Sequence record: ON212266.1
Strand: one strand, 5' to 3'
Length of the DNA stretch: 64,000 bases
DNA from: Enterobacter phage fGh-Ecl02
Both the position numbers and the translations under genes were made by a program. The notes under the pieces are model-generated. The model searched no databases, was not told where the DNA came from, and saw only the letters and a program-made list of their open reading frames with translations. How positions within the stretch are numbered: the stretch's first letter is position 1; each line of letters opens with the position of its first letter. Positions 5,123-38,778 of the stretch are shown piece by piece.

Positions 5123-6238
5123 TTAAAAATTAAACGGATAACGTCGACGGCCACCATTGTACTCCATTCGCTGCAATATGAAAATTGCGGTGAACGGCAG
5201 ACAGCCCAGCAGAACAACAATCACAACTTCCCATGTCTTGAGTTCCCGCCACTTCAGGTACTCCATTTCCTTCATCTCAACGCGGTTGTAGCCTTTGGTG
5301 ATGTTAACGACAACATCAGCCATGACACCGACGCCCATGTCGTGGCCTGTGAGAGCCATGCCATTGCGAGAATGGAGTTCACGGTTGTGCATACCATCAG
5401 CGAACGAAGTGCTCTTGCCCCAGTTGATCTTCAGGTCTTTGTTGATGTCGGTCACGACAATAACGTCGTTCTTTTTACCACCATCCCAAGCATAGACCAA
5501 GCCCTGGAAGTATTCAACTGGCTGACCGGAAGTCACAACCCAGACGATGTTCACCTGCTTGGCTGCGCCCAGCTTCTTCAGGACATCGTTCAGATAGTCG
5601 TTCCAGTATGTGGTCGGTAACGCCAGGCCGGACACGTTAAGCACACGAGTGACGCGATAGTAGTCATAGACTTCGGGATACTTCGGAATCTTGTCTTTGA
5701 AGCGCTCAGCAAACTGCTGGTCTGAACGAGAGAACAGAGAGTCTTTGTTGCCCAGCACATAATTCATATATGAATGTTCACGTGCCGCAGGTTCCCCGAT
5801 TTTAACTTGTGCCCAGCGCGGCGGTTGACCAAGACCACGACGATCAATACGATCAATCGTCAGATTACCAACAGTCGTCAACACATCCCAGTCCACGTCA
5901 TACGAATGCTCATAGCATGTGCTGCAATGGCGGGTGCGGGTACATGACTTGCTGCTACCGGAACCGGAACATGATGTGGTGTAGTAGCAGTTGCATTCAT
6001 ATGAATGCTCACAACTCACCTTATTCCGCTCCTTTGCAGTGACGTACCCGTTCAGGATCTCAACATCCCCAGAACTGCCAAGGGAGAACGCAGCATAAGT
6101 CCCCGCCTGAATCAGACAGGATAGCACCACTACAATCGCGGTCGCTATCAGAGTCTCTTTCGGCTCATGGGTCTTGCGGTGGTAGGTCACAAACAGGATA
6201 GCCAGTACCAATGGCACACCAAACAGGAGGTAGATCAT
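5123..6238 (-). CDS. Cys-rich membrane protein 371 aa (TM at both termini)
   Basis: N-terminal TM. Cys cluster 'CEHSYECNCYYTTSCSGSGSSKSCTRTRHCSTCYEH'. C-terminal TM 'VVIVVLLGCLPFTAIFIL'. Confidence 0.5.
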   Translation of the reverse strand: MIYLLFGVPLVLAILFVTYHRKTHEPKETLIATAIVVVLSCLIQAGTYAAFSLGSSGDVEILNGYVTAKERNKVSCEHSYECNCYYTTSCSGSGSSKSCTRTRHCSTCYEHSYDVDWDVLTTVGNLTIDRIDRRGLGQPPRWAQVKIGEPAAREHSYMNYVLGNKDSLFSRSDQQFAERFKDKIPKYPEVYDYYRVTRVLNVSGLALPTTYWNDYLNDVLKKLGAAKQVNIVWVVTSGQPVEYFQGLVYAWDGGKKNDVIVVTDINKDLKINWGKSTSFADGMHNRELHSRNGMALTGHDMGVGVMADVVVNITKGYNRVEMKEMEYLKWRELKTWEVVIVVLLGCLPFTAIFILQRMEYNGGRRRYPFNF

Positions 6239-27743: not shown

Positions 27744-27787
27744 CTAAATACCCCTAGATGAAACGAACACATTTAGGGGTATTTGAA
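27744..27787 (+). promoter_or_regulatory. late promoter CTAAATAcccc + hairpin cassette
   Basis: ctaaataccccta...taggggtattt inverted repeat ending 3 nt before ATG 27788. Confidence 0.55.
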
Positions 27788-30784
27788 ATGGCTAATAAAC
27801 CAACACAGCCTGTTTTCCCTCTCGGTCTGGCGGCTGAAGAGCAGTCTACTTTGGCTGGTGTCCTCAACACGGGTACGATTGAGCATGGACCAGATGCCGT
27901 CCTGACTTTACCCGAGGGTAATGCCAGCGCAGGGCTCCCGTCTTCCGTTCGCTACAATGCCGACTCCGACGAATTCGAAGGTTATTACGAAAAGGGTGGT
28001 TGGTTGCCGCTGGGTGGCGGTGGTATCCGCTGGGAAGCCCTTCCGCATGCCTCTACGGCAACGCTCACTGAAGGGCGAGGCTATCTGGTAGACAACTCCA
28101 CAGGCGTCTCTACGGTGGTGTTCCCTTCCCCTACGCGCATTGGCGATTCTGTTACAGTCTGTGACTTGTATGGAAAGTTCTCCCTGTATCCTCTGACCAT
28201 CGATCCAAACGGACGCCCAATGTACGGCTCTGTAGAGCCTATGACTCTCTCCACAGATAGTGTATCTGCGACCTTTACCTGGTCTGGAGACGCGCGTGGT
28301 TGGATTGTGACTGCTGGTGTCGGTCTTGGCCAGGGGCACGTTTACAGTCGTACCATCTTCACTGAGACAGTTGCATCAGACACAGCTCAGGTAACTCTCA
28401 CCACACAGCCGTCCATTGTTGATGTGTATGTTGACGGGAAGCGCCTGCTGGAGTCAAAGTATTCCCTCAATGGTTACAATGTCGACTTCAGTCCATCAAT
28501 CCCATCAGGTTCCGAGCTGCAGGTCATCCAATATGTCCCGATCCAGTTGGGCGATGGCTCCGGTGGTTCCGGCGGCGGTACGGTTATCACTTGGATATAC
28601 AATAGCGGATCAGCTGCGGGCGGTGAAACTGAGATCGAGTTGGACGTGGATGCCGAAGATGTTTCTGAGATCTTTATCGATGGATCCCGCCAGCAGAAAG
28701 GCCTGGGCTTCACTTATGACTCCGTTACGAAGATCATCACGCTGGCCGACGAACTCGAAGCTGGTGATGAAGTTGTTGTCGTCATCAATGGCGACCCAAC
28801 ACTGTACAATCAGATCGACCGTACACCAAACGAAGTGGCGCGTTCCGTGAACGTGCCGAATTCTCAGGTTATTTTGTCGTCCGATACCATCACCAAACTG
28901 GACGGAAAGACGGTTATCTATGATGTCGTTGCACAGAAGATCTGGGGTCTGCCTTCTGGTATCCCAACAGGCGCGTCCATCGTATCTGTGAGCGGAAGCA
29001 CCCTGACATATGCGCCTGGAGGTGTTGTTGTTAGTTTGTTGCCTGTATCAAATGAATACACTGATGTACTACGCTCTGATTTAGCCGCGCAAGACGGAGA
29101 TAAATTACTCGGGGAGGCATTGACCGTAACCGCGCTGAGGAACATAGAGCCGTCATTTGATAAACAGCGCATAACACTGCGCGAGTACAGTTCCGGCACA
29201 CGATACGGTGGCGGGCAGTTACGAGCAGTGCTCGACGGTAGCTCTTACACCGACAACGGCGTTACTGTATTCAAGACTCCTGGGGGAGCGGCATGGATTC
29301 GTATTAATGCTGACACTGTAAATCCGTTAATGGCAGGTGCAGTACCGGACGGCGTTACGCCATGTTCCTCTGCCATTAACGCTGCATTCGCAGCAGCTAA
29401 ACGAATTAGTTTCCCTGATGGTGATTACCTGCTGGACGCAACAATCACGGCGCATGAAGCCCGCCGTATTGACTTTGGCGCGGCAAGGCTGATTCAGGGT
29501 ACTACATTGTCGAACTATATTTTCGCTATCCGTGGTTCGAATACACAGGCGCGTGGCGGTAATATCGTTGGTACAGGTATCAGGGCTGGAGCAAGCAGTG
29601 TAGTGTCTGCTGTGTTAGTTGCTGATACCTCCCATAGCTCTGTTATAGGAATGACCGTCAGAAAGGTGCCTGGCTCAGGCATTCAGATGATCAATTGCAC
29701 TCGTTGCAAGATTCAGGATTGCATATCTGAAAATAACTGGGGTATGGGGCTTGAAGACCGTTACGGAACATTCAATGAAGTTATCAATTCAATCAGCAAT
29801 TCCAACGGATACCTGAGTGATACAGAGATAAACGCAACAGGCCGTGGTTGCATTATCTGGAAGAGCACCGGCACAATCTTCAAAGGAAACCAGACATTCG
29901 GCAACAGCGAATATGGTATTCGCGTTTACTCTCAGAGCGGTGATGATGCTCCGACAAGATACATTCACATTATTGACCACATTGCTGGTGATAATCAGAA
30001 GATAGATATCTATGTATACAACGATTCTGGTAATTTGCTTGGCATCGAGTTGACAAACTGCCATGTACACCGATGGAATCAATCTTTCAGCGGTAGTCCT
30101 ATGGTCGCTCTTCAGGGTCAAAGATGCCACTTTAATGGCGGGAGCCTGACAAAATATGGTGATATTTATGACTCACGAGCTATTCAGTGTAGTAATGGCG
30201 ATAATATTATTGTTGAAAATGTGAGTATTAACAACGTTACTCATGCGTTCGGTAACTCTGCGAATAACACTATTTTCAGAAACTGCGCAACATACTCTTC
30301 GACGATAACTGACGCGTCCGGCGGCTCGATAGGTGTTGCTAAGTACGAGGGTATCGATGCTGTTCATGCAGGTACTGGCACCAGTGATTATGCAATTACG
30401 GTTACTGCTGCTTGCGCTATTACCAACGTCACTTTCCAGGGCTTCGCACGTAATATCTCGTGGAATAACCAGAGCTTAACCATTAGAGACTGCCGCAGCT
30501 TTAATACAACCGGTGAGGCAATTCGCATGTACGGCGATGGTGTAGGTGCACTGCAAATGTCTGGTAACAGGTGGGACGTTGCGACTGTTCCTGCATGGCT
30601 TGGTAGCTTGGTGAAACAAGGTAGTGCACTACCGGTTCTATATGATACCGCAGCACCAACCACATTGACCTGGCCTCGTGGTGCAAAATGCATTAACAGT
30701 TCACCAGCTGTAGGTAGTCCCAAAGAGTGGATATGTACTGTAGCAGGAACCCCAGGTACATGGGTATCTGGTGGTAATTTGTAA
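27788..30784 (+). CDS. tailspike protein A (gp10-like N-terminal domains + right-handed beta-helix/pectate-lyase-like C-terminus) about 998 aa
   Basis: The N-terminal segment is homologous to the N-terminus of tailspike C ('ARSVNVPNSQVILSSDTITKLDGKTVIYD' versus 'ARSANVRDSEVILSTDTTQPLNGKKIIFD'). The C-terminus has repetitive N/G/S/T-rich beta-helix-like sequence. Confidence 0.75.
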   Translation: MANKPTQPVFPLGLAAEEQSTLAGVLNTGTIEHGPDAVLTLPEGNASAGLPSSVRYNADSDEFEGYYEKGGWLPLGGGGIRWEALPHASTATLTEGRGYLVDNSTGVSTVVFPSPTRIGDSVTVCDLYGKFSLYPLTIDPNGRPMYGSVEPMTLSTDSVSATFTWSGDARGWIVTAGVGLGQGHVYSRTIFTETVASDTAQVTLTTQPSIVDVYVDGKRLLESKYSLNGYNVDFSPSIPSGSELQVIQYVPIQLGDGSGGSGGGTVITWIYNSGSAAGGETEIELDVDAEDVSEIFIDGSRQQKGLGFTYDSVTKIITLADELEAGDEVVVVINGDPTLYNQIDRTPNEVARSVNVPNSQVILSSDTITKLDGKTVIYDVVAQKIWGLPSGIPTGASIVSVSGSTLTYAPGGVVVSLLPVSNEYTDVLRSDLAAQDGDKLLGEALTVTALRNIEPSFDKQRITLREYSSGTRYGGGQLRAVLDGSSYTDNGVTVFKTPGGAAWIRINADTVNPLMAGAVPDGVTPCSSAINAAFAAAKRISFPDGDYLLDATITAHEARRIDFGAARLIQGTTLSNYIFAIRGSNTQARGGNIVGTGIRAGASSVVSAVLVADTSHSSVIGMTVRKVPGSGIQMINCTRCKIQDCISENNWGMGLEDRYGTFNEVINSISNSNGYLSDTEINATGRGCIIWKSTGTIFKGNQTFGNSEYGIRVYSQSGDDAPTRYIHIIDHIAGDNQKIDIYVYNDSGNLLGIELTNCHVHRWNQSFSGSPMVALQGQRCHFNGGSLTKYGDIYDSRAIQCSNGDNIIVENVSINNVTHAFGNSANNTIFRNCATYSSTITDASGGSIGVAKYEGIDAVHAGTGTSDYAITVTAACAITNVTFQGFARNISWNNQSLTIRDCRSFNTTGEAIRMYGDGVGALQMSGNRWDVATVPAWLGSLVKQGSALPVLYDTAAPTTLTWPRGAKCINSSPAVGSPKEWICTVAGTPGTWVSGGNL

Positions 30785-30818
30785 CACTATGAAGAGAGTG
30801 TTATAAGGCTCCTTGATC

Positions 30819-30858
30819 TCACTAAATACCCCATATTGGCAAATCCTCTATGGGGTAT
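30819..30858 (+). repeat. 40-nt promoter-hairpin cassette, copy 1 (tcactaaataccccatattggcaaatcctctatggggtat)
   Basis: Identical to 32999-33038. Contains CTAAATAcccc and the inverted repeat ataccccata/tatggggtat. Confidence 0.85.
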
Positions 30859-30862
30859 TATC

Positions 30863-32965
30863 ATGAATCCGCAATTCAATCAGCCGAAAGGTTCAACAGC
30901 CAAAGAAATCAACAAAAACCCGCGTGAATTGTGGCGGCGGGCTTTGTCGGATTTAGGCCTTAATTTGGTTGACGGTAGTTTTGAAGATGGTGCTACTGTG
31001 GCGTCTGCAACTGACGCCGTGTGGCATGTCAATGGTGCCCAGTGTTACACCTGGGGTGGGTCTTTACCCAAGACTGTAGACAAAAACTCAACACCGCAAT
31101 CAACTGGTGGGATATCTGGAGAAGCCTGGAAGAAATACGATGAAACTTCTCAGGTTACGACACCAGGATACTATGGCGGAACTTGTTTCCCTACGGAAAA
31201 TAATCTCTCCTTGGCCGTCGGGGATATTATCCCGTCGGGAGTAATGTTCGTCAGAATTGATGGCAATCTGATGATGATGAGTTCTTCTCTGACGGAACCC
31301 GTGACTGTCACCAGTTTTGATCAGACCACGATTAATGGTGTGTATGAGTTGTACCCAGTATCATTCTTTAACGAAGTGATCACGGGTTGGAAGATCGCCC
31401 AGAATGACGCACAGCTTGCCCGTTTGTTACCAAAGGCTGGTAATATTTACATTGGGTATTCTCCCGTGAAAGTTGAAGGGATCTTCACGATTCAGGGAGA
31501 CATTCAGCTTAAACCGCTTCTGCCAAAAGTAACTGTTGATTCCCGTCAGTTTTGGCTAAGGTCACCACGGACTTGGAATGATACAAACCAGGAGTTTGAC
31601 TACACTGCCTACGATATACGCATCGTCGGTAATTTCTTGTTTGATTTTTACCGTCAGGATGCGTCATTTGACCCTGGTGTTGGTTTGGCTATGCAATCCG
31701 CTGGCACGCTTGAGCTTTCAGGGTGTGAATTACAAGGTGCGTGGAACAGTAACGTAACAATGGATTATGGTCGCTGGGCGTTGGCTGACAATCTGTATTC
31801 ACACGATTGTGGACGTGGGAAAATCCAACAGCCGGACGGCAGCAATCGTCAAGGCATGGCAATTATTGTAGGTAACGCTACAGAAGCACATATCCATCAT
31901 ATCCGTACTAGAACCACATGGGCATCTTCTGTATTTGTGGATTCAGCTCGCCCAGCTCGCACACTTAACGTAATGATTCATGACATCAGCATTAATGGTT
32001 CTGGCGGTAATGGTCTTCGTCTTCAGTCTGATGACTTGGTAACTGGTGTTGGCGGTGGTGATGGTACTGCAATTACACGTGTAAACATCAGTAATGTAAC
32101 AATCAAGAACTGCGAATCACACGGCATCCGTGCAAACTTTACAAACGGAAGCGTAACTGGGGTTTATATTGAGGCTTGTAACGCTGGCATTGCCATTGAA
32201 GGTTCAAGCGATGTGGCGTATGACAACATCATAATCAAGAATTGCTCACAGCCAATCCTCTGCCGATATTATCCGGTAGTCTGCACACGCCTGCGATTTA
32301 GTAATATCTTAATATCAGGCCACACAGATTGGGCCGTGTTCTTTTTGCGTAAGGATGGCTCCTCTCACACGGTAAATCTAGGGGATATTGAATTCGATGG
32401 GTTGACAATCCACTGCACACAACCAGGTTCTAAAGCTGTTATGATTAACTGCGGGGCGAACTCAACAGCGACTTCAGACATCACTATGAAGAACGTGCGT
32501 ATTGTTGGTGCATCCCCTGATACAGACGGAACAGCACTATGTCAGATTCATAATGCACGGCATATTGAAGTAGATAACTGGAACATTCGTGGTATTAATG
32601 GTAAGCCTAGTTCTTATCTGTATGCGCAGGCATCACAGAGCCTGAACATAAACCGCCTTGTGGGTGTTCAGCCATTCGGTACGGTTGAGCGTCCTATTGA
32701 ATGTGTTGGTGTGGCTGGTCATGTGAACATTGTCAACTGCTCGGTGCCTGTTACAACGAACGGAATACTTTATACAACTGTACCAGCTCACAGGTACGAG
32801 CAGGGGAACCAGTTCTTCAACAGTGAACGGCCGCAAGCGTATCCGTTTACAAACGCAGGTACTTTACGCGGCGGCGATGTGAATACGTTAACAACGCCCC
32901 AACTGGCAAACATAGTGGCTACGCTGATTAACGATATTAGCCTGGGCAAATTCGTAATCAGATAA
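30863..32965 (+). CDS. tailspike protein B about 700 aa
   Basis: N-terminus 'YTWGGSLPKTVDKNSTPQSTGGISGEAWKKY' is a conserved fibre/tailspike head-binding motif. Beta-helix repeats 'NGSGGNGLRLQSDD'. Confidence 0.75.
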   Translation: MNPQFNQPKGSTAKEINKNPRELWRRALSDLGLNLVDGSFEDGATVASATDAVWHVNGAQCYTWGGSLPKTVDKNSTPQSTGGISGEAWKKYDETSQVTTPGYYGGTCFPTENNLSLAVGDIIPSGVMFVRIDGNLMMMSSSLTEPVTVTSFDQTTINGVYELYPVSFFNEVITGWKIAQNDAQLARLLPKAGNIYIGYSPVKVEGIFTIQGDIQLKPLLPKVTVDSRQFWLRSPRTWNDTNQEFDYTAYDIRIVGNFLFDFYRQDASFDPGVGLAMQSAGTLELSGCELQGAWNSNVTMDYGRWALADNLYSHDCGRGKIQQPDGSNRQGMAIIVGNATEAHIHHIRTRTTWASSVFVDSARPARTLNVMIHDISINGSGGNGLRLQSDDLVTGVGGGDGTAITRVNISNVTIKNCESHGIRANFTNGSVTGVYIEACNAGIAIEGSSDVAYDNIIIKNCSQPILCRYYPVVCTRLRFSNILISGHTDWAVFFLRKDGSSHTVNLGDIEFDGLTIHCTQPGSKAVMINCGANSTATSDITMKNVRIVGASPDTDGTALCQIHNARHIEVDNWNIRGINGKPSSYLYAQASQSLNINRLVGVQPFGTVERPIECVGVAGHVNIVNCSVPVTTNGILYTTVPAHRYEQGNQFFNSERPQAYPFTNAGTLRGGDVNTLTTPQLANIVATLINDISLGKFVIR

Positions 32966-32998
32966 AACAAGTGGGTAGTCCTGCGACTCCTTATCCAT

Positions 32999-33038
32999 TC
33001 ACTAAATACCCCATATTGGCAAATCCTCTATGGGGTAT
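32999..33038 (+). repeat. 40-nt promoter-hairpin cassette, copy 2
   Basis: Identical 40-mer to 30819-30858. Confidence 0.85.
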
Positions 33039-33044
33039 CTTCAA

Positions 33045-35708
33045 ATGACCAGAAACGTCGAGAGCATCTTTGGAGCGGTCGTAACAGCTCCGCACCAGAT
33101 TCCATACACTTATACCGCAACGGGTGGAGAGACGTTTATCTCCCTCCCTTTCTACCCTGTCACTGGTATAGTCACAATCAACGGTGGTATGCAAGTTCCG
33201 TTAGACAACTTTGAAATCGATGGAAATACGTTGAATCTCGGGTGCGCATTATCCAAAGGTGACGTTGTGTTCTGTCTGTTTGATAAGATTCTGTCTCCAG
33301 AAGATTATAAAACCGGGATTCGAATCTATAAGTTTCAGGCTATAGGAGGTGAAACCGAGTTCACTCCTGATTACACATCTTATGGAGTCCAATCTCTTTA
33401 TATCGGTGGTGAGTACAAAACACCCGAAATTGAATATTCCTATGACAGCACGACAGGGAAAGTGTCTTTACAAACTGCGCTGACTGCAGGCGTTTGGGTA
33501 GTCGCTGAAATGTCTGTTAAACAACCGAATATCAGTCCGTTGTTTGACCGAAGTATTCAAGAAATCGCCCGTTCAGCTAATGTAAGAGATTCTGAAGTAA
33601 TCCTCAGCACGGATACTACTCAGCCCCTTAATGGTAAAAAGATTATCTTCGATGCAGCTTCTCAGAAAATTTATGGCCTGCCTTCATTACCGACCAATGT
33701 CTATATTAGTTCTGTGTCTAATGGTCAGTTAACCTACAGCCCGGGTAACATTACCGTAGATTTGATGGAAGTTCCTAATTCTGGTGCTAGTCTCAGAGAA
33801 GACCTGAGTAAGCCTGATGGTAGCAAGCTCATTGGTTCATGCCCCAATATTGCAGTACTGCGAACAATTGAGCCTACCTATGCTGAACAACGCATTTACG
33901 TAGAAGCACATACTGAAGGTATGTCTGCAACCAATGCAGGTGATTTGGGTGGTGGTTACTTTGTATATAAACCATCTGTTACATCAGCAGATGACAATGG
34001 TATGACTATTGTTACTGCATCCGGCAAGCGTTGGGTACGTGATTTACGTGGTAGCACCGAAGTTACCCCATCTATGTTTGGTGCGTGGATGGATGCTCCT
34101 TATATTGATGGGAGCACTATTCAGGGTACACCTTACCCTAAAGCACCGAGTATGGGGGCTGCTGACCTGTCCGGTGTGCATAATGATGGGGATGCTTTGC
34201 AGGCAACTTACTCGTATGCTGTAGCTAATGGGTTGAATATTAAAATTACCCAGCCAATGTATATTGGTGATACACAGATAGATATCAGTGATGCACGTTG
34301 GACAGGTAAATCTCTATCCATTACGGGTCTTGGTCAGAGACAAAGTATTATTTATACATCAGGTAAGGGTGGATTCATCTCTACCAGATGGGGGCATAAT
34401 ATTACTATTGGTCGCCTCTCTTTCCGTAATGCTGATTCTGATTACGTAGGTAGCCCTCTTGTTATTAGTTCATTCGACTTAAGTAATGGCATAGGTGGTG
34501 GTGGTAAGACATTTAATGTGCATGACGTGGACTTTTACCACTATAAGTTCGCTTTGCCTATGGCTTGCTTTGTCAGTGTTATGACCAATTTGTATGCATA
34601 TGACTGTACCTATGGTTTTGGTATCAATGGAAGCACTAGTACGGATATGTCATCTATTTGGGCACACCATTGTGACATTGGCTTTTTATGGGGAGCTGCC
34701 ATTAATCGTACTACATACGAGCCAGCCAGTAATGGAATGCCTGTTATGTATGTTGCTACCAGCAATATTGCAGCAGATGGTTGTATTTTACCTCATAAAT
34801 TTTATGGAGATATTCGTAGCCTTTCCTTCTCTGGCTTTGGTATTGAAGGGATAAATGGTCCAGTGGCATTAGACTTCTCGCAATTAGCTTCTCCTGCTGC
34901 ACAAACAACAATCGTATTCAGAGATGTTTCTTGTTGGATTCAGTCTAAAATGAATACTGGTGTAACTCATTTTATTGAGTTGCCTGCTAATGAGTACCAG
35001 GCTGGTAGGATTATTTTTGACAGTGGTTACGTTAACTCTGACTATGCTATCAAATTGATGGAGAATACCACTTCTCCAAGTAACCAGTATGTTGGGCGTA
35101 GTGTTACATTAAATAGTAATTTTGAATTTTTAAAAGTTAGCGATGGTTCCTACACAATATCTACATATAACCGTGGCAACCTTTACCGGGGCAGGGTATA
35201 TGGAGAAGATATTGTACAAGGTCGTAACTCGTACACGGGTACTACTTTGTCAGCAATCCATTCTAATAGTAATTCCTTCTTCAGAAGTGTTGACCACAAG
35301 GAAGCTACTGTACTGGTTCCATGGAACAGGGCTTTAGATATATTCCTTTGTGCTGTAGGGGAAGAGACTAAAATTCCGGATGGTTGCTTCGTTGCAGGAC
35401 GTGCAGATATCATTCCAGTTAACAAAAATGGTTTGGCTGGTACTGAATCAGGGGGCAGTATTCTGTTTGGGCTATCCGGTAGCACACAGGAAAATGTAGC
35501 CTCTGGTGCAGTTTGGTCCAATATGATTGCTGGTGATAAATCCCTTTCCGGGGTAACTGTAACCAAACTGGTACGTGATGGTAAAACATTTGTCAGAATT
35601 GCATTACCTACAGCAAGCCTAGTAAATGCAATCGTTCATCTGTCTGTATCCTACTGTGGTTTTGCACATTACTACGACAAGCGTTGGGAAGTAAAACCAT
35701 TAAGCTAA
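33045..35708 (+). CDS. tailspike protein C about 887 aa
   Basis: N-terminal anchor homologous to tailspike A. AT-richer beta-helix C-terminus. Confidence 0.75.
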   Translation: MTRNVESIFGAVVTAPHQIPYTYTATGGETFISLPFYPVTGIVTINGGMQVPLDNFEIDGNTLNLGCALSKGDVVFCLFDKILSPEDYKTGIRIYKFQAIGGETEFTPDYTSYGVQSLYIGGEYKTPEIEYSYDSTTGKVSLQTALTAGVWVVAEMSVKQPNISPLFDRSIQEIARSANVRDSEVILSTDTTQPLNGKKIIFDAASQKIYGLPSLPTNVYISSVSNGQLTYSPGNITVDLMEVPNSGASLREDLSKPDGSKLIGSCPNIAVLRTIEPTYAEQRIYVEAHTEGMSATNAGDLGGGYFVYKPSVTSADDNGMTIVTASGKRWVRDLRGSTEVTPSMFGAWMDAPYIDGSTIQGTPYPKAPSMGAADLSGVHNDGDALQATYSYAVANGLNIKITQPMYIGDTQIDISDARWTGKSLSITGLGQRQSIIYTSGKGGFISTRWGHNITIGRLSFRNADSDYVGSPLVISSFDLSNGIGGGGKTFNVHDVDFYHYKFALPMACFVSVMTNLYAYDCTYGFGINGSTSTDMSSIWAHHCDIGFLWGAAINRTTYEPASNGMPVMYVATSNIAADGCILPHKFYGDIRSLSFSGFGIEGINGPVALDFSQLASPAAQTTIVFRDVSCWIQSKMNTGVTHFIELPANEYQAGRIIFDSGYVNSDYAIKLMENTTSPSNQYVGRSVTLNSNFEFLKVSDGSYTISTYNRGNLYRGRVYGEDIVQGRNSYTGTTLSAIHSNSNSFFRSVDHKEATVLVPWNRALDIFLCAVGEETKIPDGCFVAGRADIIPVNKNGLAGTESGGSILFGLSGSTQENVASGAVWSNMIAGDKSLSGVTVTKLVRDGKTFVRIALPTASLVNAIVHLSVSYCGFAHYYDKRWEVKPLS

Positions 35709-35710
35709 TC

Positions 35711-35742
35711 AACTACTCCCCACCCCCATAAGGGGGTGGTTT
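35711..35742 (+). terminator. rho-independent terminator after tailspike C
   Basis: ccaccccc-ataa-gggggtgg followed by ttt. Confidence 0.5.
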
Positions 35743-35765
35743 ACTAGAAAAACAAAGAGGTTGTT

Positions 35766-38399
35766 ATGAACGAGATGTTCTCACAAGGTGGTAAAGGCTC
35801 CACTGGTATTCTTACCAACAAGCAAGCCATTGCCCGTAAGTTTGGTGTTAAGCAGAATGAAGTAGTCTACTTTTCTGTAGGTGTAGACTTGGGTGGTTAC
35901 AAAGTCATTTATGATAAGTCTACCCAGCGTGCTTACTCATTACCTGTACTTCCGGTAGGAACCACTGCAGTAAGTCTTAATGAACAGGCAGAACTTATTC
36001 ATTCTAATGGGTCTATTGACTTAGGTCAGTTAGCTGTCGAACGTGGTGAGTATGTAACCCTCCCTTACTCATTTACTACTGGAGCCACGGTTAATGTAAA
36101 GAATGAGTTATTAACTCATGAAAGTAATCAATATTACTGGGATGGTTCTCTTCCTAAAGAAGTTGCCCCCAATTCTACCCCAGCTACTGCTGGTGGATTA
36201 GGTGCTACCAAATGGTCCCAAAAATCAAGCCAGGATAATAAGACTCCGGTTTCATTTACTCAGTTTGGTGCAGTAGGTGATGGTGTAACTAACGATGTGC
36301 AGGCTGTTGCTGCTGCATTCGCTTATGCTTATGCCAATAATTTACCGGTAGAGCAACACAGTGGTACTTTCCTGCTAGATGGTGGAACTTATCTTGATAT
36401 CAAAAACCTTCAGACAGATTTAACAGGTTGTGTATTGAAACCCTCTGCCTCGTGGACTGGGCAGATAGTCATTACACAGGGAGATGCACCTATTACACAC
36501 GGTGCAGGTTCTGCTGTAGTTAATGCTATGAATACTAATAATAATGCAAGTCGAGCAGTTGGTAGCACTGTATTTAATGGATTAGCTTCTAATACTGACC
36601 TGAATGGTTGTTATATTAAAGTATCTACTTCTCAGCCGATGTTTACTTTCAGGGATACTATCTATACCCGTAAGGATCTTAACCGTGTATACAACAGAGG
36701 TAATATTGAAAACCCTCTTCGTTACGGTATTGGTAATAACGTTACTGAGGTTTTTGCACTTAAGATTCGCAAGGATGTACAGACAGTCAAAGGTCTTACT
36801 ATTGATGAGAGCCTGTCTCGTAACTACAGGATAGTCTTTATTAATAATGCAACCCGTGTGCGTTTATTGAATACCTCATTCATTAATGCACCAATTACGC
36901 AGGACTACAGTACTTCACGTATTGAAGTATCTAACTCATATGATGTAATTATTGATGGGTTATTTACACCTGCTGTTGTGGACTCCTTCACATCTTCCGG
37001 TGACATCTATTCATACACTCTGGGTTTTGGTGAGAGCATGAATATACAGGTTAAGAATGCCACAGGTAACGGAGAAGGTTGGGGAGCAACTGGTTCTAAT
37101 GACTGTGCAAACATTTCCTTTACTAACTGTGACCTTAGTCGCATAGATTTCCATAGACCATTTCAGGGATTCCTTCGGGTTAACAAATGCAATGTTGGTC
37201 GGTATGGGGTAGTTGCATCTGGCATTGGGGATTTGATTATAGACGATGTGGTATTCAACGGCTCTACCGATACACTTGGTTCCATCATAGCGACTCGTCC
37301 TGACGCTGGGGGGTTCTTTGATGGTGACCTCTATATGACCAATGTGACAATCGCAGGTCGCCGTAGTGCACCTCTCTCTACACTAATTTTTGGTTACTCT
37401 GATGAAGGTCAGGGGCCGGTATCAGGTTCCCCAATTACCAGTACTTTGTTTAACAACATTGTTATTCGAGATTTGAAGTTGGGGGATGGTTTCTATGAAC
37501 AGGCATTCTCTACATTGATTTCCTGTTCTCGTGATTCCCAGTTACTATTCCCTCGTTCAATAACAATAGATGGATACAGTTTAGGTACTTTACCTAAGTC
37601 TTCTGGTATTGGCCTCAATATAGACTTCTCTCGTTTCAAGGAACTCTATACTGGAATGACTAACAGTGAACATCCGGTTACTGGAAGAAAGACTACAGAT
37701 ATTGTACTGAATAATATTCAGGTTCCTTACCTGTCTATTACCTCAGCATCGTATCGTCACAACCCTCATGTTACTGCTCGTAATGTTCGCCACATACTAG
37801 GAGATGAAGCACCTACCTTGTTTGAGACGAACCAACGTGGTAGTTACTACTTTGAGGATTGCTCCTTAGAACAAATCAAACTGTACTCTGGTAATAATCC
37901 AAATGGTCTGGTTAGTGTACGTATGCGTGGTGGTAAACTGCATCAGCCTGTTGCTGCTACTATGCCAATATTTGGTGAAGTAACCCATGACATTGTTCTG
38001 GATGGGGTAAATCTGATATGTAACTTTACTGGGCAGGATACTACCTACCCAATAACCCGGGCTATTCTGGCAAGAGCACTGGTTCAGGATTGTATTTACT
38101 GGGACGTATCTGGAACTCGCTTAAATAGCCTGCCTATTAATAACCAGACCGGTGTATCTGTTACATCCACCGTATCGGTACGTGCTGGACAAAAGATGAC
38201 TGTATCTTCTGGTTACTCTGCCAGCAGCAACTATACAAGGAATCATATTACTGCTTTGTGGGAAACGGACTGTAAGCAGATTGTTCCTTTAGATACTGGT
38301 ACTAATATTGTTATTAAATACTCAGTTACTGGTAATAGGGTTACTCAAATGGTGTTAACTGCACCAGCATCTAATGATATTCGTGAGTTAGCCATCTAA
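35766..38399 (+). CDS. tailspike protein D 877 aa
   Basis: 'YYWDGSLPKEVAPNSTPATAGGLGATKW' shares its motif with tailspike B. Pectate-lyase-like repeats. RBS aaagagg. Confidence 0.75.
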   Translation: MNEMFSQGGKGSTGILTNKQAIARKFGVKQNEVVYFSVGVDLGGYKVIYDKSTQRAYSLPVLPVGTTAVSLNEQAELIHSNGSIDLGQLAVERGEYVTLPYSFTTGATVNVKNELLTHESNQYYWDGSLPKEVAPNSTPATAGGLGATKWSQKSSQDNKTPVSFTQFGAVGDGVTNDVQAVAAAFAYAYANNLPVEQHSGTFLLDGGTYLDIKNLQTDLTGCVLKPSASWTGQIVITQGDAPITHGAGSAVVNAMNTNNNASRAVGSTVFNGLASNTDLNGCYIKVSTSQPMFTFRDTIYTRKDLNRVYNRGNIENPLRYGIGNNVTEVFALKIRKDVQTVKGLTIDESLSRNYRIVFINNATRVRLLNTSFINAPITQDYSTSRIEVSNSYDVIIDGLFTPAVVDSFTSSGDIYSYTLGFGESMNIQVKNATGNGEGWGATGSNDCANISFTNCDLSRIDFHRPFQGFLRVNKCNVGRYGVVASGIGDLIIDDVVFNGSTDTLGSIIATRPDAGGFFDGDLYMTNVTIAGRRSAPLSTLIFGYSDEGQGPVSGSPITSTLFNNIVIRDLKLGDGFYEQAFSTLISCSRDSQLLFPRSITIDGYSLGTLPKSSGIGLNIDFSRFKELYTGMTNSEHPVTGRKTTDIVLNNIQVPYLSITSASYRHNPHVTARNVRHILGDEAPTLFETNQRGSYYFEDCSLEQIKLYSGNNPNGLVSVRMRGGKLHQPVAATMPIFGEVTHDIVLDGVNLICNFTGQDTTYPITRAILARALVQDCIYWDVSGTRLNSLPINNQTGVSVTSTVSVRAGQKMTVSSGYSASSNYTRNHITALWETDCKQIVPLDTGTNIVIKYSVTGNRVTQMVLTAPASNDIRELAI

Positions 38400-38432
38400 A
38401 GGAAAATCCCCCTTAATTGGGGGCTTTTCTTA
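38400..38432 (+). terminator. rho-independent terminator after tailspike D
   Basis: aaatccccc-ttaatt-gggggctttt. Confidence 0.5.
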
Positions 38433-38778
38433 TATAGAATTTACTGTCTGCATTACCCTAACCGATACTGCTGTTAGGGTGATTACTTGTCCTGAGATAT
38501 AAACATACCCAATTGAATACCATCTATCATGAATGGGTCAGTTGAACCAAGTGTGTAAGTAGCCAATACGTTATCCCTATTAGAGATGTCCGTACCTTGT
38601 ACCTTAACACTAGCATCTGAACCCACTACTGTAGTTCCATTGGTTCGTCTTGTTTGCGTTCTTCACTCTCTTGCTGTACCAGCACAAATGGCGGAGGTCT
38701 TGAATCCATGACCATAACCACAGAAAGATAATCAAAGACCCTTCGGGCTTATTTCTTTCTATTCCTCGGTTGGCTGTA

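Follow-up and report, generated by a model that had tools for sequence, protein, structure and literature searches.

The branched complex of four tailspike proteins (TSPs) known from phage CBA120 (Kuttervirus; PDB 4OJ5, 6W4Q, 5W6F/6NW9, 5W6H, 7REJ) belongs to a four-tailspike system that explains the host range of the Ackermannviridae and has already been used to re-target phages for therapy and diagnostics. Modular exchange of tailspike (tsp) genes has been described for this family (PMC8432352, PMC10791037, PMC11414711) and was ascribed to conserved 5′ coding regions, the GTTAVSL/TD1 site, and flanking genes (PMC8432352, PMC11414711). Agtreviruses have four tsp genes with conserved N-termini and heads that are unique to each phage and resemble tailspikes of Escherichia coli prophages (PMC10791037). 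Here, we analyzed the tsp cluster in a stretch of 64,000 nucleotides (nt) of Enterobacter phage fGh-Ecl02 (ON212266.1), referred to as the window, together with the short promoter-hairpin sequences (cassettes) in front of three of its four tailspike genes. With a probability of about 0.88, we consider the region to be the tsp1-4 cluster of the Agtrevirus (Ackermannviridae) fGh-Ecl02, encoding the branched receptor-binding complex known from CBA120 with exchangeable heads and late-leader cassettes.

The phage was isolated on Enterobacter cloacae in Ghana, and its 700-amino-acid (aa) protein alone was treated as 'the spike protein' (PMC11226500). Sorensen et al. 2023 (PMC10791037) included its genome among the 14 agtreviruses whose tsp clusters they compared; the intergenic cassettes are not discussed there. 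The fGh-Ecl02 instance as such adds little, since the genome is public and the tsp cluster has been compared before. A first-pass annotation of the window, made from the letters alone, correctly recognized biology that is established for the Ackermannviridae in a genome already compared in print; only the promoter-hairpin leader seems to be under-described, both in the way it is likely to regulate and as a possible splice point.

For this leader, the closest described system is found in phage T4. The T4 genes e, soc, 49, and I-TevI have their ribosome site sequestered in a helix whose 5′ strand contains a late promoter, and only the transcripts from the late promoter are translated (PMC3014915; McPheeters 1986). 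Homologues of T4 gp55, gp33, and gp45 are reported in CBA120, ViI, and AG3, for which the late promoter was stated to be unidentified (PMC3184105). CTAAATAcCcc is listed for EspM4VN solely as a 'unique regulatory motif' (PMC7283392). In the literature, we found no published transcription start sites or promoter analysis for Ackermannviridae, and a 2024 review is silent on promoters; the tailspike papers that were searched for 'intergenic' and 'promoter' use neither word for the tsp cluster.

Tailspike genes and their anchors

The cluster consists of four consecutive intact open reading frames (ORFs) on the + strand, extending over 27758/27788-30784, 30836/30863-32965, 33030/33045-35708, and 35766-38399 (outer start/ATG where two are given). 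With the ATG after each ribosome site, the ORF map gives 998, 700, 887, and 877 aa for genes A, B, C, and D, exactly the lengths listed in the first pass with its implied starts. By exact-sequence look-up, the A, C, and D proteins are identical to USL85809.1, USL85811.1, and USL85812.1 of fGh-Ecl02 (153,282 bp), and the window from 40 to 60 kb has 97-98% nt identity to the E. coli phages AV101, RPN242, YX22, and A221 (Ackermannviridae, Aglimvirinae). The cluster is flanked by baseplate (wedge) genes and a VriC-like gene, an order that matches ten annotated relatives; the ORF on its 3′ side has 1612 aa with DUF4815 and is annotated as VriC in relatives. Judged by sequence, genes A, B, C, and D are, in window order, assigned to TSP4, TSP3, TSP2, and TSP1 of a CBA120-type complex. 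The main features are as follows:

27744..27784, + strand: cassette before gene A, consisting of the late-promoter-like CTAAATACCCC and a hairpin of 15-16 bp whose 3′ arm, AGGGGTAT, is the Shine-Dalgarno region; fold -21 kcal/mol, z-score (z) -7.2; identical or nearly so in all ten relatives
27788..29044, + strand: anchor of gene A (TSP4), with the baseplate/assembly domains XD1-XD3 and TD1; match to 7REJ/7RFO, 88-92% identical (nt) to relatives as far as 28818 or 29038, GC content 0.534
29045..30784, + strand: receptor-binding head of gene A, a right-handed beta-helix (Pfam Beta_helix) common to P22-like prophage tailspikes
30819..30858, + strand: cassette before gene B, 40/40 identical to the gene C cassette (repeat search); fold -17.9 kcal/mol
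30863..32965, + strand: gene B (TSP3), docking peptide and TD2-like PF18668 without TD1, then a beta-helix head (PF18668, AlphaFold2 (AF2)/Foldseek)
32999..33038, + strand: cassette before gene C, of the TSP2 type, conserved from Kuttervirus to Limestonevirus (repeat search, comparison, fold)
33045..35708, + strand: gene C (TSP2), XD/TD anchor followed by a beta-helix head (match to 6W4Q; AF2/Foldseek)
35766..38399, + strand: gene D (TSP1), TD1-TD2 anchor (residues 1-163) and lyase-related head (match to 4OJ5; 8X8M homology)

The assignment to the four-tailspike arrangement of CBA120, which had been suggested at first sight, is borne out by N-terminal structure matches, gene order, and the mosaic map described below. 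Residues 1-338 of A match residues 1-336 of the CBA120 TSP4-N structures 7REJ/7RFO (E 8e-150), residues 1-441 of C match residues 1-434 of CBA120 TSP2 (6W4Q; E 9e-144), and residues 1-163 of D, in which both TD1 and TD2 are present, match CBA120 TSP1 (4OJ5; E 1e-65). The N-terminal segment reported as shared by A and C proved to be a paralogous anchor segment (A 276-521 and C 99-350) with 39% identity (E 7e-42). Likewise, the motif common to B and D, W-x-GSLPK-x-V-x-x-NSTP-x-x-x-GG, is real and corresponds to the Pfam domain PF18668 Tail_spike_N (E 3e-14 and 4e-16); the spacing given for it at first was slightly off, and the attribute 'head-binding' is a P22 term that is not applicable here.

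Compared with CBA120, the window has the same gene order, the same neighbors, and the same TSP4, TSP2, and TSP1 anchors, as well as the same cassettes before TSP4, TSP3, and TSP2 and a hairpin before TSP1. It differs from CBA120 in all four heads, in a B protein without TD1, and in its backbone, which is Aglimvirinae of ~49% GC and thus of another subfamily. The N-terminus of B (30863-31150) retains the first ~20 residues and a TD2-like PF18668 domain (residues 38-91), to which its match with CBA120 TSP3 is restricted, and in the alignment ~63 residues (TD1) are missing relative to CBA120 TSP3. The TSP3 proteins of MK-13 and Ag3 have the same TD1-less N-terminus, whereas the TD1 residues are present in CBA120 TSP1/TSP3, YX22 TSP3, and D of the window. 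Judged from these sequences, the short N-terminus appears to be typical of the Ag3 group and the sole caveat to CBA120-type membership. Docking of so short a TSP3 on TSP2 is not addressed in the tailspike literature that we examined.

By analogy with the CBA120 model, A (TSP4) would anchor to the baseplate via gp10-like XD domains and carry C (TSP2), while D (TSP1) and B (TSP3) would dock on A and C via an N-terminal peptide and TD domains. Each spike would end in a different trimeric beta-helix head that binds and cleaves one surface polysaccharide, so that up to four receptors could be addressed.

Fold and predicted activity of the heads

At the fold level, all four C-termini are right-handed beta-helix modules, as proposed in the first pass. 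The head of A matches Pfam Beta_helix (E 6e-10), B and C are covered by AF2 and Foldseek, and D by its homology to 8X8M. The AF2 model of the B head (predicted local distance difference test score (pLDDT) 85.8) gave Foldseek matches to tailspikes and pectate-lyase-like folds (E 2e-5), and that of the C head (pLDDT 83.6) to tailspike depolymerases (E 1e-13); the template modeling (TM) scores of these matches are modest (0.35-0.45), and together the models indicate a general beta-helix tailspike fold and nothing narrower. Since Pfam returned nothing significant for the isolated B, C, and D heads (best E 0.046-0.18), their enzyme families are not assignable.

The head of D is homologous to the Klebsiella tail spike/lyase K64-ORF41 (8X8M), a capsule depolymerase that acts as a beta-elimination lyase (E 7e-47, ~560 residues aligned, low identity). 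Tyr417, His463, and Arg511 of D (window 37014-37298) align with the catalytic residues Tyr528, His574, and Arg628 of K64-ORF41, a match that uses a +20 offset between paper and PDB-chain numbering which is itself inferred. This alignment suggests a lyase mechanism, and not hydrolysis, for the cleavage by D of a capsule or O-antigen that contains uronic acid; the D head is, on these grounds, probably a polysaccharide lyase.

Mosaic structure and provenance of the heads

We mapped the mosaic structure by blastn of the cluster against ten relatives. In gene A, nt homology to the relatives ends at 28818 (E. coli group, CBA120) or at 29019-29038 (Ag3, MK-13, Gloob, RC-2014), a breakpoint that coincides with the end of TD1, where published work places module exchange. 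The A head has 83-91% aa identity to proteins with three other adaptors (PF18668, P22 head-binding, and T7 gp17-type) and 84.6% nt identity to the tailspike of a P22-like prophage adjoining an O-antigen glucosylation operon in E. coli YA-1; its best match in the sequenced-phage collection reaches only 32% aa identity. Full-length nt similarity of gene B was found among the ten relatives only to MK-13 (84%); a P22-like tailspike of E. coli has 85% aa identity to the B head, and proteins of Enterobacter hormaechei reach ~82%. Among the relatives, YX22 alone resembles the whole of C and the initial 380 nt of D (93% nt), and the C head shares 96% of its residues with 1023-aa proteins on ~72-kb contigs and ~52% with E. 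coli P22-like tailspikes. The D head is related among these phages only to the gene in the TSP2 position of MK-13 (67% nt, 70% aa), a swap between TSP positions, and has 46% aa identity to the Rtp fibre.

Two Logan contigs, SRR19500612_495 and ERR14760525_1211 (from assemblies of 90 and 125 kb), encode an identical B protein. Their B-C block is 96% identical (nt) to the window, but they have different TSP4 (1062 aa) and TSP1 genes, and by their sequence they appear to represent further unsampled agtreviruses that shuffle the same modules.

Several known phages combine such heads with other carriers. The A, B, and C heads are held in common (52-96% aa) with P22-like (Lederbergvirus) prophage tailspikes and with gp63.1/gp66 of G7C-like (Gamaleyavirus) phages, which differ from the window in their adaptors (P22 head-binding PF09008, T7 gp17-type PF03906, or PF18668 alone) and in being single- or two-spike systems without a four-spike tree. 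Agtrevirus AV101, in turn, has a backbone 97.5% identical to that of the window and shares no head with it at the nucleotide level. The occurrence of head homologues on unrelated anchors and in other TSP positions supports modular horizontal exchange, and the heads are, by homology rather than by base composition, foreign modules on conserved anchors that differ from the heads of close relatives. The first pass had likewise suggested acquired modules on conserved anchors. The comparisons show the heads to be interchangeable modules, gained by recombination with P22-like E. coli/Enterobacter prophages and with other phages such as the G7C-like ones, as well as by exchange among the TSP positions of related agtreviruses. 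The crossovers are located at the end of TD1, at the start codon, and in the intergenic cassettes. For an Enterobacter therapeutic candidate, this provenance offers leads for receptor prediction, as the A and B heads resemble E. hormaechei/E. coli prophage spikes and D is a probable lyase.

It is conceivable that the four genes arose by tandem duplication and diverged in place, with the low GC content of 33-38.4 kb reflecting a local mutational or amino-acid bias. The paralogous N-termini of A with C and of B with D fit this origin, as do the anchors of C and D, which are as AT-rich as their heads, so that composition alone marks no imports. We regard it as very improbable, and as the origin of the heads we rejected it: pairwise comparison of the four heads gave no significant similarity (best E 0.007 over 80 aa), whereas proteins from unrelated phages and prophages match them at 70-96% identity, and relatives with 97% identical backbones carry entirely different heads.

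Base composition had been put forward as a marker of the imported modules, with a shift from balanced N-terminal to AT-rich C-terminal parts. Such a shift exists in A, where GC content and third-position GC content (GC3) fall from 0.534/0.54 in the anchor to 0.474/0.43 in the head, with the drop near 29.5 kb compared with the homology breakpoint at 28.8-29.04 kb. It is weak in C, where only GC3 declines (0.41 to 0.32), and is absent from B (0.48 vs 0.46) and from D, whose GC content is flat and low (0.42 in the anchor vs 0.415 in the head) and whose anchor, like that of C, is itself AT-rich. The AT-rich tract was correctly noted: 33.0-38.4 kb is the longest low-GC stretch of the window and holds 21 of the 25 lowest 1-kb windows. 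For B and D, we rejected composition as a general sign of head import; it is weak evidence that works for A only.

A putative promoter-hairpin cassette before late genes

The identical 40-mer before B and C (30819-30858 and 32999-33038), noted in the first pass together with a variant before A (27744-27784), was found as described. When extended to 45 nt, the B and C cassettes agree at 43 of 45 positions, and the A variant has a longer stem. CTAAATACCCC occurs six times exactly in the window, and eight times with one mismatch vs 0.6 expected; for CTAAATA, 12 occurrences compare with 4.2 expected. At the sites examined (the VriC-like gene, the three tsp cassettes, and three late genes other than tsp), CTAAATA lies 15-45 nt before a same-strand gene start. 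In five of the six full motifs (A, B, C, 17644(-), and 62501(+)), the motif supplies the 5′ arm of a hairpin, and 5-9 nt separate the 3′ arm, GGGGTAT, from the ATG; the folds have -16 to -22 kcal/mol (z -3.9 to -7.2). A further motif, at 17149(-), lacks a hairpin and uses a ribosome site of its own, GAGGA.

The two cassettes outside the cluster, 17603-17648 (-) and 62497-62545 (+), precede genes for phrog_4700 (154 aa) and phrog_2114 (242 aa), which are not tailspikes and have no assigned function. We therefore rejected the cassette as a tailspike-specific device, all the more since it recurs in many viral contigs; as a generic late-gene leader, it most likely has a primarily regulatory role.

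Across the family, cassettes precede TSP4, TSP3, and TSP2, and never TSP1, in relatives from Kuttervirus to Limestonevirus, including CBA120, whose TSP3 and TSP2 cassettes differ in loop and tail, whereas the window pair is identical over 40 nt. A scan of viral contigs, Ackermannviridae-sized ones among them, which required the CCCC/GGGG core, found the cassette at at least 120 loci. The set of cassettes was limited to those with an ATG within 10 nt, a requirement that set aside matches of another kind in other phages, which resemble terminators (such as CCCCCGAGAAATCGGGGG with a T run behind it). Among the 40 distinct cassettes obtained, 32 have at least three extra complementary pairs inside the core, whereas shuffled loops gave 2.0 on average as the expected number and 7 at most. 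The inner stem covaries, with more than 12 different sequences among the 40. Because the extra pairing is kept across differing inner-stem sequences, the hairpin itself is selected.

By analogy, these cassettes resemble the late-promoter hairpin of T4 gene e, in which the Shine-Dalgarno sequence is sequestered. The arrangement is the same in both phages, with a late motif (TATAAATA in T4, the T4-like CTAAATA here) in the 5′ strand and the Shine-Dalgarno sequence in the 3′ strand before the AUG. In contrast to T4, the hairpin of the window precedes structural late genes, its near-invariant ATACCCC/GGGGTAT core is reused at several genes, and it is known from sequence alone. In the proposed mechanism, a gp55-type late promoter-like motif, CTAAATA, lies within the 5′ arm and the Shine-Dalgarno sequence forms the 3′ arm of the same hairpin. 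Read-through transcripts from upstream, with the hairpin intact, would be translationally silent as for T4 e, soc, 49, and I-TevI, while transcripts from the embedded promoter, lacking the 5′ arm, would be translated. Fold predictions are in line with this gating: the leader energy changes from about -20 kcal/mol in read-through transcripts to about -3 kcal/mol in transcripts that start 6 nt after the motif, a start placed by the precedent of T4 late promoters, and the predicted unpaired probability of the Shine-Dalgarno sequence is 0.00-0.21 in the former vs 0.35-0.52 in the latter.

The same hairpins might instead act mainly as terminators of the upstream tsp gene that overlap a restart promoter, making each tsp gene its own transcription unit. 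They have GC-rich stems of 10-16 bp followed by a U-rich stretch (UAUUUGAA, UAUUAUC, UAUCUUC), and the A-B and B-C spacers of the window contain no other terminator, while the longer spacers of relatives have a canonical terminator upstream of the cassette. However, a terminator scan did not call the cassette hairpins, whose T runs are short and interrupted, and relatives keep the hairpin even with a strong terminator 40 nt upstream. In addition, the distance from the 3′ arm to the ATG is always 2-9 nt, and the only purine-rich ribosome site lies within this arm, which suggests a translational role. We thus consider a main function in termination unlikely and favor the late-promoter hairpin that gates translation.

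Gene D has no cassette and no CTAAATA motif; it is preceded by an ordinary AAGAGG ribosome site. The late-promoter motif is likewise missing before TSP1 in all nine relatives that were compared at the equivalent of window 35720-35765. In the window and in seven of these nine relatives (not in MK-13 and Ag3), TSP1 is preceded by a GC-rich hairpin and then ...ACTAGAAAAACAA(A/T)GAGG, a plain ribosome site. Since TSP1 is without the late-promoter motif, D must depend on transcripts that read through from the putative TSP2 promoter, and its dosage would then differ from that of the other three spikes.

The cassette as a possible recombination joint

The first-pass annotation had also claimed that the cassettes provide homology for exchange. 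In the proposed model, the conserved and repeated cassette would double as a short homology patch for the joining, swapping, and deletion of tsp genes, and several junctions do lie at cassette edges or at the start codon. The window sequence 30614-30858 (end of A, spacer, and cassette) is 78.6% identical to Dickeya phage RC-2014, and 90.7% over the last 140 nt. In RC-2014, this homologue follows a decayed TSP3 and precedes TSP2, and the homology stops at the 3′ edge of the cassette; the next gene in the window is TSP3. The decayed TSP3 of RC-2014 (5590-6100) consists of a terminator, a ribosome site, and ATGAATCCGCAATTCAACCAGCAATGGTGA (nine codons and a stop). Behind it lies a remnant with a broken reading frame, which corresponds by homology to the C-terminal ~140 residues of gene A and is annotated only as a 63-aa hypothetical protein.

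Loop types provide a second line of evidence. In most relatives, the TSP3 cassette has the loop ggtcatccttt and the TSP2 cassette the loop ggcaaatcctct. In the window and in Gloob, which shares the cassette and the start of B from 30819, the TSP3 cassette combines a TSP2-type loop with a TSP3-type tail (tattatcATG). From the ATG onward (homology from 30862), the TSP3 gene is the same in MK-13, Ag3, and two Logan contigs, where a terminator and an ordinary ribosome site precede it and no cassette is present; the 96% nt identity of gene B to the two Logan contigs starts exactly at 30862. In LHE287, which has only three tsp genes, the single cassette joins an upstream base and loop of the TSP3 type to a tail of the TSP2 type. 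From its sequence, such a chimera would be expected from a tsp3 deletion between two direct repeats.

An alternative reading ascribes the 40-nt identity of the B and C cassettes to purifying selection on a regulatory element only, with tsp exchange proceeding solely through the coding N-termini and the flanking genes. This is where the literature places the exchange (conserved 5′ coding regions, GTTAVSL/TD1, and flanking genes; PMC8432352, PMC11414711), and it agrees with GTTAVSL at residue 65 of D, with the position of the A breakpoint at the end of TD1, and with conservation of the cassette at non-tsp genes. On the other hand, the TSP2-type loop in the TSP3 cassette of the window and Gloob, the RC-2014 flank match, and the LHE287 chimera require crossovers in or beside the cassette. 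Selection as the only cause is possible, but we would not expect it, and a secondary role of the cassette as a recombination joint seems plausible from these junctions.

Taken together, the comparisons allow a tentative proposal, which we hold with reservation: that CTAAATACCCC...GGGGTAT is a family-wide reusable late promoter within a Shine-Dalgarno-sequestering hairpin, which may limit tsp4, tsp3, tsp2, and a few late genes to transcripts from their own promoters, and that it may also be the actual crossover site for insertion, replacement, and deletion of whole tsp genes. Such a dual role, if true, would explain how agtreviruses gain and lose tailspikes without disturbing the expression of neighboring genes. 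Likewise, cassettes acting as both gates and recombination joints would provide natural, expression-neutral splice points for whole-tailspike swaps in phage engineering.

Several points weigh against the overall picture of exchangeable heads behind gating and recombining cassettes. The CCCC/GGGG core of the stem is invariant, so the core itself yields no covariation evidence. If transcription started upstream of the CCCC, the hairpin would be present in every mRNA and the gating model would fail. That junctions lie at the cassettes does not prove that the cassettes cause the exchanges; causality is unproven because conserved regulatory DNA between variable genes marks breakpoints under any mechanism. 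Base composition fails to separate anchors from heads in B and D, and the docking of B may differ from that of CBA120 TSP3 because B is without the TD1 of that protein. Finally, fGh-Ecl02 infected 7.4% of the tested Enterobacter cloacae complex strains and 0/10 E. coli (PMC11226500), and with so narrow a strain coverage the usefulness of all four heads is unproven.

Other features of the cluster

Three further elements lie between C and D or at the end of the cluster:

35720..35739, + strand: GC-rich hairpin ccaccccc-ataa-gggggtgg followed by TTTACTAG, between genes C and D (sequence read)
38407..38423, + strand: intrinsic terminator-like hairpin that ends the cluster (sequence read, terminator scan)
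38420..38685, - strand: non-coding gene remnant as in the Gamaleyavirus (G7C-like) spike flank, 86-92% nt identity to Bp4, nithesis, and PD38

At the C-D hairpin, whose T run is short, the scan called no terminator. In the 420-nt spacer after D, the ~270 nt of the remnant, which G7C-like phages have in common with the window as spike-flanking DNA, correspond to the 3′-terminal part of Bp4 orf14, a hypothetical gene in opposite orientation that directly follows the tail spike gene in these ~72-kb Gamaleyavirus genomes. A second copy of the remnant is present in YX22 between TSP3 and TSP2. Judged by these matches, 38420-38685 looks like a gene remnant that travelled together with a tailspike between phage families.

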